Source of the DNA: a virus
Direction: 5' to 3' (one strand)
Virus genome (UHGV): UHGV-0092215
Length of the DNA: 18,743 nt
Shown: piece by piece, positions 991-18,743 of the stretch
Layout of the letters: each line of letters begins with the position of its first letter
How positions within the stretch are numbered: position 1 is the stretch's first letter
Translations under genes and position numbers: made by a program
Notes under the pieces: model-generated
Seen by the model: the letters and a program-made list of their open reading frames with translations, nothing else
Told to the model about the DNA's origin: nothing
Databases searched by the model: none

Positions 991-1210
991 TGGTGATTTT
1001 ATTGGGACAGTTACGCTGAACGGACCTGTTATGAGTCAACACATCTTTCTTAGTCTGGCGGTCCATAACCTCAATGTCGTGCTCAGTGAGGTAGATTATG
1101 CTTACCCAGTCACAGGCCGTGTCCGTTACTTCAGGTTTTGCGGGTAAACTTTTCGCGCAACTCACGGTCAACATCGTCATCAGGAAGATGATTAACAGTC
1201 TGTTGTACAT
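977..1210 (-). CDS. putative o-spanin (Rz1-like outer-membrane lipoprotein)
   Basis: 77 aa ORF with hydrophobic N-terminus and lipobox-like LTVSC; AAGGAG RBS 6 nt upstream of the ATG at 1208-1210; overlaps the upstream gene by 80 nt in another frame, as Rz/Rz1 pairs do; directly after the endolysin. Confidence 0.6.
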   Translation of the reverse strand: MYNRLLIIFLMTMLTVSCAKSLPAKPEVTDTACDWVSIIYLTEHDIEVMDRQTKKDVLTHNRSVQRNCPNKITMASQ

Positions 1211-1400
1211 CCCTGGCTCCTTTTGTTGTTTCTACCCGGCGTTCTGCAACAGCTTCAGTAGCAGTTGCACGTTCTTCAGTTCGTTGCTGGTCCGCTTTTG
1301 TTTCAGCAATACTGGCACCACGTGATTTGCCCAGACCAAAAGCACCGGCAATTGCTGCCAGCGCAGCAACAATCAGGCCGATAATCATTTCAAGTCCCAT
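1131..1400 (-). CDS. putative i-spanin-like membrane protein (Rz-like, 89 aa)
   Basis: Internal ATG at 1398-1400 (MGLEMIIGLIVAALAAIAGAFGLG..., one N-terminal transmembrane segment then a charged tail) with GAGG RBS; the ORF-track start at 1535 would overlap the endolysin. Shorter than a typical Rz, so the call is positional. Confidence 0.5.
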   Translation of the reverse strand: MGLEMIIGLIVAALAAIAGAFGLGKSRGASIAETKADQQRTEERATATEAVAERRVETTKGARDVQQTVNHLPDDDVDRELREKFTRKT

Positions 1401-1407
1401 AGTAACC

Positions 1408-2034
1408 TCACACCAGTGCGGCTTTAGCTTTGGCGTAACGTTCACGGCGGTCTTTAATGCCGTTCTGCCCGCCGTTAATAATCTGTGTGACACGCTCCAA
1501 ATCGCCCGGATACCGTAGACAACCGTTTGAAACATAGAACCAGGCAGCGCTGCGTGCAGCGTTAATGTCTTTTCCCAGCAGTTCAGGGTTGCTGACTAAA
1601 TCCAGTTTTAACGCCGTACCACAGGTCAGGTAGTTATCCAGGAAGGTGATCCCTATAATTCCGCGCCCCCGGTATTTCCACCCATCACCAGCCGACTTGT
1701 TGCCAAAGCGGCCTCCGTATACCAGATTTGCAATCGCCCGCTGGCGTTCGAGTGGCAGAACTTTTTCGTAATTTTTTCTTCCCAGCGCACTGGCCTGGTC
1801 TGGAGTAAGCCGCTTTACTTTCACAAAATAGGCTAATCCGTCGATGCTATAGTTGAAGCTTTCCACCAGTTGGGTAAAGCCAGTGCTTTCGTGCCCACAT
1901 TGCGCAATAAACATGGCCTGATCGAGTTTTGTCGTAATGCCGAATTCTTTCATTGCCGCATCAATGTGCGGAAACCAGCGTGCAGAAAGCCCGGCGCTGA
2001 TACCAGCCGCCTGCTGAAATTGTGATTGGTTCAT
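1408..2034 (-). CDS. phage endolysin, glycoside hydrolase family 19 (chitinase-like lysozyme)
   Basis: Internal ATG at 2032-2034 overlaps the upstream stop (TAATG); sequence from MNQSQFQQAAG... carries GH19-type motifs (AQCGHESTGF, NLVYGGRFGN, GRGIIGITFLDNY); sits between holin-like genes and spanins. Confidence 0.85.
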   Translation of the reverse strand: MNQSQFQQAAGISAGLSARWFPHIDAAMKEFGITTKLDQAMFIAQCGHESTGFTQLVESFNYSIDGLAYFVKVKRLTPDQASALGRKNYEKVLPLERQRAIANLVYGGRFGNKSAGDGWKYRGRGIIGITFLDNYLTCGTALKLDLVSNPELLGKDINAARSAAWFYVSNGCLRYPGDLERVTQIINGGQNGIKDRRERYAKAKAALV

Positions 2035-2315
2035 TATTGCCTCAGATGATCTACCAGACGTGCCACGTTGCCTCTGACGGCGACCAGCACGGACAGAAAG
2101 ATAATGTTGGCCCCGATAGTGGCCCATGATGAGTACGGGTATATACCGCACAGATACGCCAGCGGAACTGCGCTGTAGATGACCGTAAGCAGCCACGCCA
2201 GGCGAGATATCCACGGTCGATGTCGGGAATCACCACGACGGTAAAACATCAAGGTCAGCACTACCCCAGCGCAAAGCAATGCATTTAAAGTTGCCGATGG
2301 GTCATTTTGTACCAC
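2034..2315 (-). CDS. holin-associated small membrane protein (second holin or antiholin-like, 93 aa)
   Basis: GTG start at 2313-2315 preceded by GGGGAGG RBS; about 3 predicted transmembrane segments; between holin and endolysin. Confidence 0.6.
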   Translation of the reverse strand: MVQNDPSATLNALLCAGVVLTLMFYRRGDSRHRPWISRLAWLLTVIYSAVPLAYLCGIYPYSSWATIGANIIFLSVLVAVRGNVARLVDHLRQ

Positions 2316-2688
2316 CTGAACCTCCCCGGCGCGTTATCAGCGCCACCAGCGAGCCAACATCCTGATTATTCAGGAACGTCAGGATTTTGACGGCTAAAGC
2401 AGAAACGATTACGGCGCCAATGGCATCCAGTGGTTTATCACTGTAGCCGGTAGCCTGAGCCAGCTTTGAACCCACCAGCCCGGAACAAAGGATCCCCGCG
2501 ATATACGACACCAGAAAATATGCCAGTCGGCGCGCTGCACTTAGATCCGCTGCAGTTGCAATGTAAAAAACAGCCCCGGCAAATGCGCCAAACACCACAC
2601 CGTAATCGGTTCCGGACAGAAATCCATAGACGCTGGCCCCCGTCAGGACACCACCAGCCAGCCCAGTACCGGAAATCGGATCGGACAT
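2302..2688 (-). CDS. putative holin (128 aa multi-pass membrane protein)
   Basis: ATG at 2686-2688 with AGAGGGGG RBS; Gly/Ala-rich hydrophobic segments and charged C-terminus; first gene of the lysis cassette. Confidence 0.7.
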   Translation of the reverse strand: MSDPISGTGLAGGVLTGASVYGFLSGTDYGVVFGAFAGAVFYIATAADLSAARRLAYFLVSYIAGILCSGLVGSKLAQATGYSDKPLDAIGAVIVSALAVKILTFLNNQDVGSLVALITRRGGSGGTK

Positions 2689-2833
2689 TTAGCCCCCTCT
2701 TAATTGCTGTGATTCCTCTCAGAAATGAGGGGATGTGGAATCAGGCAACCGGGCTCTTTTGTTCAAATAAAAGTAAGGATGATTCCCGGTGCCTGAAAAT
2801 GGTAATCACCACATCCACAGGGCGTGATGATCG

Positions 2834-3886
2834 TTATGTTTTGCTCAGTTTTTCCACCTCTTCGGTGGTCTGAATAAATCTGTCAGCTTCCAGTTCTACT
2901 CCGATCGCCCGACGGCCAAGTTCTATTGCAGCTTTCACAGTTGAACCAGAGCCCATAAAGAAATCGGCAACGATATCCCCCGGCCTGCTGCTGGCGCTAA
3001 TGATCTGCTTCAGCATGTCGGCGGGTTTTTCACATGGATGTTTGCCTGGATAAAACTGAACAGGCTTATGCGTCCATACGTCGGTATACGGAACAAGAGC
3101 GGAAACAGAGAAGCAGCGCCGAAGGATTTTGTATTCCTCCAGCAATTCTGAATACTTGCGGTTTAATGACTGGTAGGTAGCCACCAGCTGGTGGTGAGGA
3201 TGTTCAAGCTTTTGCTGAATATGTTTATCGATGGCGATCCGCGTGAACAGTTCCTGCAATTTTCGATAGTCCACTTCATTCGGTAGTTGCCATTGGCTTG
3301 CACCAAACCAGTGTGACGCCATGTTTTTCTTTCCGGTTGCCTCAGCTATTTCTTTCGAGCTGACACCCAGCGATTCACGGGCATTACGGAAGTAGTCAAT
3401 CAGTGGCGTCATAATGTGCTGCTTTAGCTCTGTGCTTTTCCTTTCGTAAACATCCTCTTTACCTGTGTACGGCCCAAGATAGTGCTCAGCAAACAAAATC
3501 CGTTCCGTAGATGGAAAGTACGCACGCAGGCTTTCTTTGTTACAACCATTCCAGCGGCCCGATGGTTTTGCCCAAATTATGTGATTCAAAACGTTGAACC
3601 GGGCACGCATCATAATCTCTATGTCTGAGGCCAGTCGGTGACCGCAAAACAGGTAAATGCTGCCAGCAGGTTTAAGTACGCGAGCATACTCAGCCAGGCA
3701 GCTATCAAGCCAGCGTAAGTAGTCCTCGTCCCCCTTCCATTGGTTGTCCCAGCCGTTAGGCTTCACTTTGAAGTACGGAGGATCCGTAACAATCAGATCA
3801 ATAGAGTTATCCGGGAGGGTGGCGACGTAATGCAGGCTATCAGCGTTGATTAACTCAACACTGTTTATTTTTACAGTATTTTTCAT
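2834..3886 (-). CDS. DNA methyltransferase, beta-class (DPPY motif before FxGxG; N6-adenine or N4-cytosine)
   Basis: 350 aa; LIVTDPPYF near the N-terminus and FFMGSGST near the C-terminus; no restriction-endonuclease-like partner visible; no obvious RBS before the ATG at 3884-3886. Confidence 0.85.
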   Translation of the reverse strand: MKNTVKINSVELINADSLHYVATLPDNSIDLIVTDPPYFKVKPNGWDNQWKGDEDYLRWLDSCLAEYARVLKPAGSIYLFCGHRLASDIEIMMRARFNVLNHIIWAKPSGRWNGCNKESLRAYFPSTERILFAEHYLGPYTGKEDVYERKSTELKQHIMTPLIDYFRNARESLGVSSKEIAEATGKKNMASHWFGASQWQLPNEVDYRKLQELFTRIAIDKHIQQKLEHPHHQLVATYQSLNRKYSELLEEYKILRRCFSVSALVPYTDVWTHKPVQFYPGKHPCEKPADMLKQIISASSRPGDIVADFFMGSGSTVKAAIELGRRAIGVELEADRFIQTTEEVEKLSKT

Positions 3887-4036
3887 AGATCAGTAAGCGT
3901 AACTCTGATAGGCTCACGTTGCTTTTGCGCTAAAGCAGTGGGCCTTGGTTAGCTTGTGACCTGAAAGCATGAGCTGATGGCTGGCCGGGTGCGCTAACAC
4001 CCACCAGCCGCCCATTTCCACAGCAGAAAGCCCCCA

Positions 4037-4228
4037 TTACTGGAGGCGTTTATAACATCCAAACTGGTAATCAGATAAACCCGCCATCACCAGCTGCGTA
4101 AGTATGAGCTGGCAACGTTCGCGGCTGAGGTGGGTATTCTGTGCAATCTCCCCAGCCGTTGCTGGTTTATCGCTTAATTCATTGAAAACAGCCTTTGCCG
4201 TTTCTGTCATATCTTCCTGATTTAGCAT
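4037..4228 (-). CDS. small winged-helix-like hypothetical protein (63 aa)
   Basis: ORF-track ORF; composition resembles the small protein at 14247..14501 (..AGEIA..L..L...G..); weak RBS. Confidence 0.45.
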   Translation of the reverse strand: MLNQEDMTETAKAVFNELSDKPATAGEIAQNTHLSRERCQLILTQLVMAGLSDYQFGCYKRLQ

Positions 4229-4348
4229 GTCTTTTACCTAAAATTAGTTGCGTGACATACAGATAACTCTGGTTGGTGATACCAGCAAGAGAAGAATTCC
4301 ATTCTGCGACCGCCAGCGCCTTTATGCGCCGTGCATGGCTGATTTGCC

Positions 4349-4376
4349 ATAAAAAAACCCGCTCATCGGCGGGTTT
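4349..4376 (-). terminator. strong intrinsic terminator downstream of the Q-like gene (tR'-like)
   Basis: On the minus strand AAACCCGC-CGATGA-GCGGGTTT followed by TTTTTAT; lies about 90-120 nt after the Q-like stop. Confidence 0.7.
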
Positions 4377-4389
4377 ATAAAACTTTGGC

Positions 4390-4440
4390 AACATATCAAA
4401 TATGCTTTAAATATGGCTTATTTTGTTGCATTTTGCAAGC
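4390..4440 (-). promoter_or_regulatory. candidate late promoter (PR'-like) with qut-like region
   Basis: Minus-strand TTGCAA (4433-4438) then about 17 bp then CATATT/TATTTA; assigned mainly by position between the Q-like gene and the terminator; element match is weak. Confidence 0.3.
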
Positions 4441-4468
4441 GTGTTTGAAGGAGATAGTGAAATTTACT

Positions 4469-5158
4469 TCACATTTCTGCCACTTTGAGGGCTTCTTCTT
4501 CCTCATAGTATTCCAGAGCCATGGCCAATGCAGATTCATCAAGCTGCGTAAAAGCGGTCTTTAACCCAGCCCAGTGCCCTGAATAGACACGCAACCATGT
4601 CGAACGGTCAACGCTAACCATGCGGGCCAACGCTGCACCAGCATAGTCTTTATAGGTTTCATTATTTCTGGTTGCGGCAATTTCCTGCCCTGCCAGCCAT
4701 ACCAGGCCAATCAGTTTCTTTACTACGCGATCCTGAAGGGAATTATCACCCAGGCATTTCTGATAAGTTTTCCAGACGTATTCACACATCATCACCTGGT
4801 GCTTATAGCTAAGGTCAAAACCGTAGCAGTACCGCAACCAGGCCTGCTGGTATCCACTAAGCGCGGACACTGCCCTACGCCACGGCGCGGACTCAAATTC
4901 CGCATCTTTTATCGGCGGCATTGGCCTGCGGCGGCTGCGTGTTTCCAGTACATACAGTGGCGCGGAAAGCGAGTTAACAAAGCGTGGCCCCTTCTCTCCT
5001 TCGAGTTCGACGAGATGAATTCCACGGCGCGGGGTGGCATTTTTGTCTGCTGGTGGGTGTTCACTGAAAGCCTCAAGCTGCCCTTTTGTTCCCCCGGAGA
5101 GGTCAGGTAGCGCGCGGCGCAATTCTATTCTTACAAAATTCAGGTCTTGTTGATTCAT
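4469..5158 (-). CDS. putative late-gene antiterminator (Q-like, QuuQ/phage-82 type)
   Basis: 229 aa from the ATG at 5156-5158 (the ORF-track GTG at 5179 directly follows the upstream TAA and is the alternative start); followed by promoter-like sequence, strong terminator and lysis genes; a DUF968-like gene sits upstream as in E. coli Qin ydfU-quuQ. Family is from position and recall. Confidence 0.5.
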   Translation of the reverse strand: MNQQDLNFVRIELRRALPDLSGGTKGQLEAFSEHPPADKNATPRRGIHLVELEGEKGPRFVNSLSAPLYVLETRSRRRPMPPIKDAEFESAPWRRAVSALSGYQQAWLRYCYGFDLSYKHQVMMCEYVWKTYQKCLGDNSLQDRVVKKLIGLVWLAGQEIAATRNNETYKDYAGAALARMVSVDRSTWLRVYSGHWAGLKTAFTQLDESALAMALEYYEEEEALKVAEM

Positions 5159-16089: not shown

Positions 16090-16790
16090 CAACTAACAAC
16101 CACCCGGCGCACGGTCCTGTATCACTCGATCGCCTGCACCAGATACGCGAAATACTCAGCAAAGCATCAGCACAAAGCGACGGCGGCAATCTCGGATACG
16201 CAATTGCTGATGCTGTGAAGGTGATTGATGGGGTGCTATCCATTCCGTCGACTCTACCATGTCCAGTGCATCTTGAGACGGGTCTTAAATTCGGCAAAGG
16301 TGTGCGCACTCAGTGCGTACTGGACGCATTGCGACGCCGTGCTGACTATTACGCTGAACTGGAAGCCATGACGCCGGAACAGCGAGCCGAACATGATGCA
16401 GGTATCGAAGCAATTAAAGCGATGTTGCCGAAGCCAGCCCAGCCGGATATTGAAATGCTGGCCTCTGCACTGACTAACGCTCCGTTAGCGCCGTCAGATA
16501 GGCAGGGCAGACCGAGAGCGCCGGTGGTGCCGGAGGAATGCAAAGAAGCACCTGCGTACGTCAAAGCACTGACGAAAGAGGGGGCGTATATCTATGGATT
16601 TAACGCCTGCCGCGCCGCCATGCTTCAGGCTGGCAACTCTCCGGTAACTCCGGATGGTTGGCAATTGGTTCCGAAAGAACCTACAGCAGCGATGAATAAA
16701 GCTGGCTGGGACGCAATGAACGAACATGATGCAATTAACCCGACGTATAGAGCTATGCTCGCAGCAGCACCGCAGCAGGAGAATGTATAA
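16086..16790 (+). CDS. hypothetical protein (234 aa)
   Basis: ATG 16086 overlaps the upstream stop (ATGA) with GAGG 9 nt upstream; Ala/Pro-rich middle; no family assigned. Confidence 0.6.
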   Translation: MTTNNHPAHGPVSLDRLHQIREILSKASAQSDGGNLGYAIADAVKVIDGVLSIPSTLPCPVHLETGLKFGKGVRTQCVLDALRRRADYYAELEAMTPEQRAEHDAGIEAIKAMLPKPAQPDIEMLASALTNAPLAPSDRQGRPRAPVVPEECKEAPAYVKALTKEGAYIYGFNACRAAMLQAGNSPVTPDGWQLVPKEPTAAMNKAGWDAMNEHDAINPTYRAMLAAAPQQENV

Positions 16791-17331
16791 CGTGAACAAT
16801 TTAATGATCGACCTTGAGTCCATGGGCAAAAGACCGAATGCCCCTATCGTCTCCATTGGTGCCGTGTTCTTCGATCCGCAAAGCGGTGAACTGGGTCAGG
16901 AGTTTTACACCGCCGTTAACCTTGAAAGCGCTATGGAGCAGGGAGCGGTGCCGGATGGTGACACTATTCTGTGGTGGTTAAGACAAAGCTCAGAAGCGCG
17001 ATCAGCAATCTGTGTTGATGATGCGATGCCGATATCGTCTGCCCTATCTGAACTGAGCCATTTCATTAATCGGCATTCTGATAACCCAAAATATTTAAAA
17101 GTTTGGGGCAATGGAGCTACTTTCGACAACGTTATATTGCGCGGCGCATATGAGCGCGCCGGCCAGGTTTGCCCGTGGCAATTTTGGAACGATCACGACG
17201 TCAGAACCATCGTCACATTAGGCAGAGTTGTGGGTTTCGATCCAAAGCGAGATATGCCATTCGATGGGGTTGCACATAACGCACTGGCCGATGCGCGACA
17301 TCAAGCAAAATACGTGTCCGCGATCTGGTAG
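16783..17331 (+). CDS. DEDDh-type 3'-5' exonuclease (DnaQ-like fold)
   Basis: LMIDLESMG (Exo I-like acidic motif), WGNGATFDN and HNALADA (Exo III-like His) from the sequence; start ambiguous among ATG 16783, GTG 16792 and ATG 16804. Confidence 0.7.
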   Translation: MYNVNNLMIDLESMGKRPNAPIVSIGAVFFDPQSGELGQEFYTAVNLESAMEQGAVPDGDTILWWLRQSSEARSAICVDDAMPISSALSELSHFINRHSDNPKYLKVWGNGATFDNVILRGAYERAGQVCPWQFWNDHDVRTIVTLGRVVGFDPKRDMPFDGVAHNALADARHQAKYVSAIW

Positions 17332-17402: not shown

Positions 17403-17675
17403 ATGAATACTTTGTTTTTACTTATGGCTGAGTTCAACACGCCTAACATCGAGCTGTCAGCGGTATGCCAAAAGTATTTCGGTATGAGCCCTAACACAGC
17501 AGAAGCGAAAGCAAATGCCTGTCAGTTGCCGATCCCGACTTACCGTGTAGGAACATCACAGAAAGCGAAGCGCTGTATCAACATTCAGGATCTTGCTGAG
17601 TATATAGACCAACGGCGAGAAGAAGGCAGAATTGAATGGGAGAAAGTAAGAACAAATAGGCAAAGAAATAACTAA
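17403..17675 (+). CDS. xis: excisionase-like DNA-binding protein (PrtN/pyocin-activator family)
   Basis: MNTLFLLMAEF...VCQKYFGMSPNTAEAK...LPIPTYRVGTSQKAKRCINIQDLAEYIDQRR matches the PrtN-type excisionase pattern I recall; GGAG RBS 7 nt upstream. Confidence 0.7.
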   Translation: MNTLFLLMAEFNTPNIELSAVCQKYFGMSPNTAEAKANACQLPIPTYRVGTSQKAKRCINIQDLAEYIDQRREEGRIEWEKVRTNRQRNN

Positions 17676-17681
17676 CCTCAC

Positions 17682-17710
17682 AAAAAAACCCGCTTCGGCG
17701 GGTTAGTTTT
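17682..17710. terminator. bidirectional intrinsic terminator between convergent xis and the YafO-like gene
   Basis: AACCCGC-TTCG-GCGGGTT with a 7-A run upstream (a 7-U run on the minus-strand RNA) and AGTTTTCATCTTT downstream. Confidence 0.7.
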
Positions 17711-18137
17711 CATCTTTATAATTCTGTGCAATTCGCGCTAGATAGCTCATCACATCATGTTTTCTTGCTTTTCCATGTGCATCGGGATGCATAATAGCGA
17801 TGAGTGAATATTTATTCTCATAAAGCTCACCTTGAACATACACAAGACAAGCATCATTGTTAGGATCCCCTTTCTTACAGACCCTATCCGGCTGTGGACG
17901 ATTCCCTGGAAACTTGTTTGGCGGTAGACAAAGATGGATATGCATCAACCCAGCCCGGAAAGCGCCATAAGGCTGAGTATACGCAACGTCCCTACCGAAG
18001 TATTGCGGAAGCTCACCAGTCGCTTTGTATCTCAGGAAATCATCGATAATAGAAGCCTCTAGCTCCGGAAATTTGAGAAATACTTCATCAAAAAATTCAG
18101 CTTTGGTTGCTGGATTAATAGAGGCTTCTAAGTGCAC
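17703..18137 (-). CDS. YafO-family toxin-like protein (putative ribosome-dependent mRNA interferase homolog)
   Basis: 144 aa with GTG start; resembles E. coli YafO as I recall it (DDFLRYKATGELPQYFGRDVAY vs ADFISYKRDGVLPDIFGRDALY; HIHL; LVYVQG; LIAIMHPDAH); AT-rich relative to neighbours. Confidence 0.6.
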   Translation of the reverse strand: MHLEASINPATKAEFFDEVFLKFPELEASIIDDFLRYKATGELPQYFGRDVAYTQPYGAFRAGLMHIHLCLPPNKFPGNRPQPDRVCKKGDPNNDACLVYVQGELYENKYSLIAIMHPDAHGKARKHDVMSYLARIAQNYKDEN

Positions 18138-18153
18138 AGTCGTCCGCTATCGG

Positions 18154-18693
18154 TTAGTGAAATTGCATCGATTTTAGCTTATTTGAAGTGTAACTAGCTA
18201 GTGCTGCAATTCCTTCAAGATCCGCGCTTCCGTTAAAAGTAACAGTTTCTTTAAACATGCTCTTAATGTAACTGTTAAGACGAGTGACAGATGAACGAGC
18301 TTTAGCAATATGACGCCAGTAAACCTTCAGTTCTGACCTGATAAATTCAGGCAGAGGAGATTCAATTGTACGCTTCACTTCTTCTTCAAAAGCACGCAGA
18401 AACATTTCACATGCCTCTGTCGTATCTGTCCCGTTTTTGGTAACGAACTCACGAGCTTCTTGGCTATTAAGATCAATCAAACCGATATAGTAGTCATCTG
18501 CTGCGATAGTTAACTTTTGCAAGATCTCTTTACCCTCTTCCATTTTGCGTGAGAATTCCTCAACGGTAGGAGAGTGTTTAAAAGGTTTTGCAATCACGGG
18601 GGCTGGCTGGATGATGAACTCCTGCGCCATAGCAGCAGGACAAGCCAGAGGCCCGCACAATGCAGCAAAAGTAATGGCGTTAAACGGATTCAT
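18154..18693 (-). CDS. hypothetical secreted/periplasmic protein (179 aa) with N-terminal signal peptide
   Basis: ATG 18691-18693 with GAGG RBS 5 nt upstream; hydrophobic N-terminus ending AMA-QEF (AxA-type cleavage site); AT-rich; no family assigned. Confidence 0.6.
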   Translation of the reverse strand: MNPFNAITFAALCGPLACPAAMAQEFIIQPAPVIAKPFKHSPTVEEFSRKMEEGKEILQKLTIAADDYYIGLIDLNSQEAREFVTKNGTDTTEACEMFLRAFEEEVKRTIESPLPEFIRSELKVYWRHIAKARSSVTRLNSYIKSMFKETVTFNGSADLEGIAALASYTSNKLKSMQFH

Positions 18694-18743
18694 AGCAACC
18701 TCGACAGTTTTACTTACTAAGCAATAGCCTTGGCTATTTGGAG

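Follow-up and report, generated by a model that had tools for sequence, protein, structure and literature searches.

We have analysed 18,743 nucleotides of the virus genome UHGV-0092215 (this whole stretch is termed the window), close to one end of which there is a two-gene cassette. It encodes a 144 amino acid (aa) toxin of the YafO family and, directly upstream, a protein of 179 aa that we term the partner. In our preferred interpretation, to which we give about an even chance of being correct, the genes form a self-contained and horizontally mobile toxin-partner module, carried as cargo (a 'moron') between the excisionase gene (xis) and the attachment (att) site of a prophage, with the partner acting as the neutralizer of the toxin. 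On comparison of the sequences this is most likely a new toxin-antitoxin (TA) variant that is type II-like. The YafO subfamily to which the toxin belongs never has YafN as its partner.

Pairing of the toxin with the upstream gene

Loci were surveyed using one genome per species, giving 51 in all. At each of the 45 that carry this YafO subfamily (L012-L056) an open reading frame (ORF) of the partner family, or a remnant of one, lies directly upstream of the toxin gene. Forty-two of the pairs are intact, with a spacer of -29 to +21 nt (median 3 nt) and stop and start codons that often overlap, and the order is always partner then toxin, that is the antitoxin-then-toxin order. The upstream proteins in P. 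aeruginosa, Photorhabdus and Gilliamella (180-186 aa) have no Pfam match and were placed in the partner family by profile. A YafN-like ORF is absent both directly upstream and within 3 kb on either side at 44 of the 45 loci; the one match, at L054, is ~3 kb away and on the opposite strand. By contrast, the distant YafO homologues L059-L061 (131-132 aa) have a YafN-like gene (95-99 aa) upstream instead.

The pairwise divergences of toxin and partner are closely correlated (Mantel r = 0.865, a value reached by 0 of 2000 permutations). Toxins share 49% identity on average and partners 23%, the partner evolving about twice as fast. Antitoxins typically evolve faster than toxins. The two genes are inherited together and are often translationally coupled.

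In the initial annotation of the window the toxin was described as an orphan. The 179 aa protein is instead a conserved partner that, intact or as a remnant, occupies the antitoxin position at all of the species-level loci (45/45). Neutralization of the toxin in trans, which had also been suggested, is unlikely because a partner or its remnant is found directly upstream at every locus and because the divergence of the two is correlated. A broader form of this idea is that the genes are independent cargo, the 179 aa protein being an envelope protein (acting for example in superinfection exclusion) and the YafO homologue a true orphan that is silent or is neutralized in trans by a host antitoxin. 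The predicted compartments of the two proteins do indeed differ, and neither sequence nor fold comparison related the partner to an antitoxin. However, the strict adjacency at every genome locus of the subfamily, the frequent overlap of stop and start codons, the correlated divergence, the lack of a YafN-like ORF within 3 kb at all loci except L054 and the joint relocation of the pair to unrelated sites in phages and plasmids (see below) make independent cargo improbable.

We note two further observations on the upstream gene. At L062 (2363-3360, a Pontibacterium metagenome-assembled genome) a distant YafO homologue of 136 aa is preceded by an overlapping 196 aa ORF without a match to the partner family or to YafN; it may encode a third type of partner, or the reading frame may have been called too long. 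In addition, the start codon of the toxin is the exact point at which many predicted viral regions begin (L065-L067, L069, L072, L077 and other IMG/VR loci). A prophage-boundary caller that splits the module in this way drops the partner gene, so that the toxin would look like an orphan in viral databases.

The toxin gene lies at 17703 to 18137 on the minus strand. Its start codon is GTG in the window and, at the corresponding position, ATG in an E. coli relative (92% identity). Both ORFs of the cassette are real and lie exactly where they had been placed initially. The earlier assignment of the 144 aa protein to the YafO family also stands: it matches Pfam YafO_toxin PF13957 with 70.8 bits (cutoff 25) over profile positions 2-100 of 101, and is 37% identical to YafO of E. 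coli K-12 (E = 1e-19). Against the NCBIfam YafO equivalog NF007377 it scores 71.1 bits, far below the cutoff of 153, so that it is a member of the YafO family and not an ortholog of K-12 YafO. It is assigned to phrog_1651, and belongs to a subfamily distinct from the canonical YafN-linked YafO proteins. It exceeds K-12 YafO in length by 12 aa; the N-terminus is extended and residues 86-96 form an insertion.

In an alignment of 33 sequences the subfamily is strongly conserved, with the motifs MHIH, Q..R.C, LVY..G and P.AH. Twelve residues (F34, G48, Y53, H66, H68, Q82, R85, Y100, G103, P118, H121 and A137) are at least 95% conserved among 43 subfamily members, and the same 12 are identical in four comparison homologues; these are K-12 YafO, the YafN-linked L060 and L061, and L062, described above. 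The AlphaFold2 (AF2) model of the toxin has a predicted local distance difference test score (pLDDT) of 94.8. Its best structural matches in the PDB are HigB2 (8a0x_C, probability 0.97), then YoeB and HigB1. These matches are modest, with template modelling (TM) scores of 0.39-0.58 and E of at least 4e-3, none reaching E ≤ 0.001. A sequence search of the PDB gave no match to the toxin and no structure of a YafO protein. It is plausible from the conserved residues and motifs that the toxin is an active ribonuclease of the RelE type.

The opposite suggestion, already made in the initial annotation, is that the YafO-like protein is a domesticated fold that is not toxic, in which case the pair would not be a toxin system. 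The protein is mildly acidic (isoelectric point, pI, ~6.3), it falls far short of the cutoff for the NCBIfam equivalog and the subfamily has its own insertions, all of which would be consistent with this. Yet the residues that are invariant across canonical YafO proteins and this subfamily are all kept, including H66, H68, Q82, R85, Y100 and H121, making domestication very improbable. Moreover the subfamily is very strongly conserved, and the module, as is usual for TA systems, is carried by plasmids and prophages.

The partner protein and its leader

The partner gene occupies 18154 to 18693 on the minus strand and starts with ATG; 16 nt (18138 to 18153, minus strand) separate its stop codon from the start of the toxin gene. 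The protein has no match in Pfam, NCBIfam, PADLOC or, at the level of sequence, the PDB, the one database match being to phrog_8416, a group without assigned function. When 1.84 billion representative proteins were searched exhaustively by profile, 94 representatives of the family were recovered, most of them 165-190 aa in length. The family is undescribed, and its proteins, of ~180 aa like the partner, have three parts: a leader at the N-terminus, a linker and a ~130 aa helical domain.

In the AF2 model of the partner (pLDDT 80) an N-terminal helix (residues 6-24) is followed by a disordered proline-rich linker (25-43) and an all-helical domain (44-175). The helices of the domain comprise residues 44-73, 77-87, 90-110, 116-146 and 159-175, with pLDDT of about 85-94. 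Codons 44-179 (18157 to 18564, minus strand) encode this conserved core of the family, in which R127 and L165 are invariant. The linker (codons 25-43; 18565 to 18621, minus strand) is poorly conserved, with 44% identity within the Enterobacterales and a ratio of non-synonymous to synonymous differences (pN/pS) of 0.50, and its pLDDT is below 50 at residues 29-39. Fold searches with the partner returned only generic helical bundles and no antitoxin-like fold, and comparison with YafN revealed no similarity (hhalign probability 0.6%).

Some other assignments were rejected. A T4-like RI antiholin (Pfam PF24205) was matched by one of 39 members, below the cutoff (E = 0.067) and by chance, and a relationship to DUF695 was likewise sub-threshold and seen in one member of 39. 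In the GenBank record of phage PhiR40_1 (PV340560.1 222-761; L002 5852-6391) the partner is named 'YafM antitoxin', a name for which no basis was found in the literature or in similarity.

The leader (codons 1-24; 18622 to 18693, minus strand) is hydrophobic and resembles a signal peptide. In the window the N-terminus is MNPFNAITFAALCGPLACPAAMA followed by QEF, and has a hydrophobic core with proline at -5 and alanine at -3 and -1. The leaders of other clades are textbook-like, as in MARTKIPFSKVAMLSLALSVSTSCA followed by Q in Pseudomonas and MANHSVINSAILAALFAFSSQA followed by DE in the Orbaceae. By a crude heuristic a signal-peptide-like N-terminus is present in 34 of 43 paired partners and in 62 of 76 family representatives; the same heuristic flags 14% of the toxins and, among control ORFs, 19-29%. 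The leaders have short hydrophobic cores (~10-17 residues), often with proline or glycine, and a small-x-small motif follows. In most clades the charge bias is N-in, lysine or arginine preceding the core and acidic residues following it. The h- and c-regions of the leader in the window (with A-M-A and then Q at the putative cleavage site) fit a signal peptide, and the cleavable-looking signal peptide that had been noted on the 179 aa protein is best described as a signal-peptide-like, secretion-type leader.

A lipoprotein reading of the leader was rejected, as neither cysteine lies in a canonical lipobox and the second is glutamine in most relatives. So was translation from an internal start at Met-22, which would skip the leader; no Shine-Dalgarno sequence precedes Met-22, and codons 2-24 are under strong purifying selection at the protein level. 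This selection confirms the annotated start codon of the partner.

Some lineages lack the leader. The partners of the Halomonadaceae (L036-L038, L042, L043 and L045) have no hydrophobic N-terminus, and in a P. putida group the leader is degenerate. On the phage-plasmid pJN2-26 (L155 1874-2491) a different region of ~80 aa replaces leader and linker, and the upstream protein of 205 aa matches the helical domain of the partner only (E = 1e-9). In all these cases the adjacent toxin is intact, so that the helical domain is evidently functional without the leader. About 570 further plasmids, mostly of Klebsiella and Enterobacter and several of them ~110 kb in size, carry a toxin variant of less than 60% identity (30-41% in sampled rows), and the leaderless form is probably present on hundreds of phage-plasmid-like replicons. 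It had been argued initially that a protein with such a leader is not a plausible cytoplasmic antitoxin. The argument is weakened because the same domain is found leaderless in some lineages.

Within clades the leader is better conserved than the helical domain. Identities are 84% and 55% respectively in the Enterobacterales, and 90% and 61% in Pseudomonas, while pN/pS is 0.22 for codons 2-24 (pS 0.42) compared with 0.39 for the helical domain. Ordinary signal peptides have the reverse pattern. Between clades the leaders are unrelated in sequence (23-31% identity), while the toxin remains ~50% conserved. The constraint on the leader suggests a sequence-specific role beyond generic targeting to Sec.

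A segment more conserved than the mature domain is atypical of signal peptides, and could be accounted for if the hydrophobic N-terminus were not cleaved. It might then be a membrane tether at the cytoplasmic face or a helix that plugs the toxin, and the partner would be an antitoxin acting in the cytoplasm with an unusual N-terminal module. The lack of a basic n-region in the leader of the window would fit such an arrangement, as would the leaderless variants in which the helical domain is workable without export. Against this, the short cores with proline or glycine, the small-x-small motifs and the distribution of lysine or arginine before and acidic residues after the core make up the N-in/C-out pattern of a signal peptide, and the segment is unrelated between clades that retain ~50% identity in the toxin. 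We therefore regard an uncleaved N-terminus as a possible but rather doubtful explanation.

The cassette in the prophage and elsewhere

The cassette converges on xis, an excisionase gene of the PrtN family (17403-17675, plus strand), with which the toxin gene shares a bidirectional intrinsic terminator at 17687 to 17704 that overlaps the toxin stop codon. The terminator has a stem of 7 bp (5 GC pairs), a loop of 4 nt and T-runs on both strands, and is identical in L149, one of two contigs (L144 and L149) that match the window at 100% identity over 6.6-7.0 kb. The earlier description of an AT-rich convergent block proved sound, the GC content being 42.8% in the cassette and 50.1% in the rest of the window. 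The 5′ untranslated leader of the cassette (18694 to 18743, minus strand) contains a Shine-Dalgarno sequence, GAGG, at 18699-18702, five bases 5′ of the partner ATG.

The sequence beyond the end of the window is provided by the two contigs, position 18743 corresponding to position 5395 of L149. On the 5′ side of the partner gene there are ~165 nt of phage DNA, then the att site and then host genes. A promoter-like sequence TTGACC-17-TAGACT starts 4 nt past the end of the window (L149 5363-5391), and the same hexamers are present in the E. coli relative (L001 9473-9445). The att site lies in an orphaned 5′ fragment of dusA of 29 codons (L149 5176-5265), which includes RFSIAPMLD and matches residues 27-38 of K-12 DusA. 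It is located ~180 nt upstream of the partner gene. Past the att site the host genes are a cupin gene, zur, csbD, dinF, lexA, dgkA and plsB, and the integrase is at the opposite end of the prophage. The prophage is lambdoid, and is integrated in the 5′ end of dusA.

A further gene had been suspected beyond the edge of the window, and a YafN/Phd-like gene was sought there. The contigs contain only the promoter-like region, the att site in the dusA fragment and host genes, with no plausible small ORF; the absence of YafN that had been remarked upon at the locus therefore extends past the edge. Control by the SOS response was also rejected, as there is no LexA box with up to one mismatch upstream of the cassette, in a scan that recovered the lexA boxes as a positive control. 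The promoter-like site of the cassette probably drives its expression in the lysogen. The dusA fragment points in the same direction, so that transcription from the host dusA promoter could continue into the cassette, and expression by such read-through is possible.

Two observations concern the neighboring genes. The gene at the xis position belongs to the PrtN (pyocin activator) family and is assigned to the excisionase phrog_1300. The gene that precedes it (16726-17331) encodes a protein with an Rv2179c-like 3′-5′ exoribonuclease domain, called 'exodeoxyribonuclease VIII' in one phage record. The toxin, the partner and xis all lack a match in PADLOC-DB 2.0.0 at E ≤ 1.

The module is found in more than 40 species of gammaproteobacteria, in a variety of locations. 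In E. coli the pair lies at the prophage end by xis, as in the window, in 53 of 5426 complete genomes. In prophages of P. aeruginosa it lies beside the repressor; in Photorhabdus it is found within the baseplate module, and in Gilliamella it is flanked by tail-fibre and lysis genes. In phage HK639 the pair (gp17/gp18, L154 2920-3938) is inserted in the tail module, between tape-measure and minor-tail genes; we note that in this well-known lambdoid phage, a viable coliphage, it is preceded by a lipoprotein gene and that a terminator is annotated just downstream. On the Klebsiella IncFIB plasmid NZ_CP083052.1 (L153, locus 1044-4514) the pair is in an IS5-flanked segment. There it lies between two copies of the same IS5-family transposase gene, an arrangement that resembles a composite transposon. 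Both genes are present at 95% identity or above on 43 Klebsiella plasmids. The E. coli versions are carried by the viable coliphages PhiR40.1 and PhiR55.1, which served as challenge phages in a published study. This distribution indicates that the two genes travel together among phages, tailocin-like clusters and plasmids.

Carriage on prophages at positions typical of defence genes or morons has also to be considered in the light of a sensor-effector form of defence. Here the partner would normally be exported, and in this way held separate from the toxin. Disturbance by a phage of the envelope, of Sec or of the proton-motive force would cause the precursor to accumulate and alter the toxin, by activating it or by releasing it from another restraint, and the infection would be aborted. 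Most of the family has a conserved secretion-type leader, and tuned kinetics of export could account for its strong constraint. This requires, however, that the toxin be harmless alone, yet every invariant YafO residue is kept and K-12 YafO has been reported as a toxin (PMC11980606). The arrangement could not work in the leaderless lineages, the copies on Klebsiella plasmids (43 records) fit addiction at least as well, and there is no match in PADLOC. Such a sensor is unlikely in our view.

A possible mechanism, known systems and significance

We return to the interpretation in which the partner neutralizes the toxin. The toxin would be an mRNA endonuclease that blocks translation, as does K-12 YafO, and the helical domain of the partner would be its cognate neutralizer, binding the toxin directly. 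The helical domain is proposed for this role because it is the only part common to leader-bearing and leaderless lineages, and because it has about twice the evolutionary rate of the toxin. The leader would direct unbound partner to the Sec machinery or to the membrane. Removal of partner in this way would make the cytoplasmic pool dependent on continued synthesis, so that the partner would be the short-lived component. If its supply stopped, either because the element was lost or because an infecting phage shut off host expression, the toxin would be freed. The outcome would be plasmid or prophage addiction, or abortive infection. It is possible that the pair is a defence or exclusion module.

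A number of points weigh against this interpretation. The most serious concerns location; were the leader to act efficiently as a cleavable Sec signal, mature partner would be delivered to the periplasm, apart from the cytoplasmic toxin. The leader of the window has no lysine or arginine in its n-region, and conservation of the leader above that of the helical domain is not predicted by simple disposal by export. No DNA-binding domain (HTH, RHH, AbrB or Phd) was detected in the partner among 39 members of the family, so that the autoregulation of canonical type II systems is not expected. There is no complementarity of charge between the proteins (pI ~6.3 for the toxin and ~5.6 for the partner domain). 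The promoter-like site matches the consensus at 9 of 12 positions, and such matches are not enriched over shuffled sequences. Lastly, PADLOC has no match, and no published phenotype was found in the literature.

Three ways out of the conflict of compartments were considered. The pre-protein might neutralize the toxin, with export serving as turnover; the N-terminus might be a non-exported tether or a helix that contacts the toxin; or the arrangement might be of the sensor type. The first can be taken further, giving an antitoxin that is labile by secretion and not by proteolysis. It would neutralize only as the cytoplasmic pre-protein, the constrained leader possibly forming part of the interface with the toxin, and free partner would be removed through Sec. 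We consider this a minority possibility, about as probable as the uncleaved N-terminus discussed above. If true, the balance of toxin and antitoxin would report on gene expression together with the state of the export machinery or the energization of the membrane. This would be a previously undescribed route to antitoxin lability, in which the status of the envelope is linked directly to a ribonuclease toxin.

The closest known system is YafN-YafO of E. coli K-12 (dinB-yafN-yafO-yafP), which has a homologous toxin, the order of partner then toxin and a very short spacer. The order listed for PF_YafO (PMC11980606), antitoxin then toxin, is that of the present pair. However, the partner is unrelated to YafN, being ~180 rather than 97 aa in length, all-helical and with a secretion-type leader. 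The location of the module differs too, being the end of a prophage with no LexA box upstream, whereas yafN-yafO is part of the SOS-regulated dinB operon.

The RelE/ParE-superfamily modules HigB2-HigA2, YoeB-YefM and HigB1-HigA1, which provide the best structural matches to the toxin model, are also bicistronic and are often on mobile elements. Their antitoxins are by contrast small, cytoplasmic and DNA-binding, and the structural similarity is modest. The short or overlapping spacer and conservation as a unit (42 intact pairs, median gap 3 nt) are features of type II TA systems in general. In toxin-antitoxin-chaperone (TAC) systems a SecB-like chaperone controls an antitoxin of the HigA type (PMC11980606). 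As is proposed for the present pair, a toxin module of the RelE superfamily there has the fate of its antitoxin tied to a Sec-related component, and some TAC systems act in abortive infection. TAC systems however have three genes, and the chaperone binds a C-terminal extension of a cytoplasmic antitoxin, whereas the present module has two genes and an N-terminal leader; no homology was detected.

The cassette also resembles phage morons and prophage-end cargo, being an insert of low GC content with its own promoter-like site and terminator, located between xis and att here and at unrelated positions elsewhere. Moron is however a category of genomic behavior, not of mechanism. Surveys of Pseudomonas prophages and tailocins list the toxin alone (PMC10449497, PMC4684702). 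A search of the available literature found no exported antitoxin, no partner of YafO other than YafN and no account of the present partner.

At present the toxin is annotated as 'type II toxin-antitoxin system YafO family toxin' and its neighbor as 'hypothetical protein'. The present results indicate that the pair is a distinct and widespread module, the second component of which is an uncharacterized family that lacks a Pfam model. Should the partner prove to be the antitoxin, the analysis would supply the missing antitoxin annotation, and this antitoxin family would be the first that we could find with a conserved secretion-type leader. This would raise the question of how such an antitoxin comes into contact with a toxin of the cytoplasm and how the two are kept apart. 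The module has a candidate function in addiction or defence on clinically relevant plasmids of Klebsiella and Enterobacter, and in prophages of E. coli, Citrobacter and Pseudomonas.

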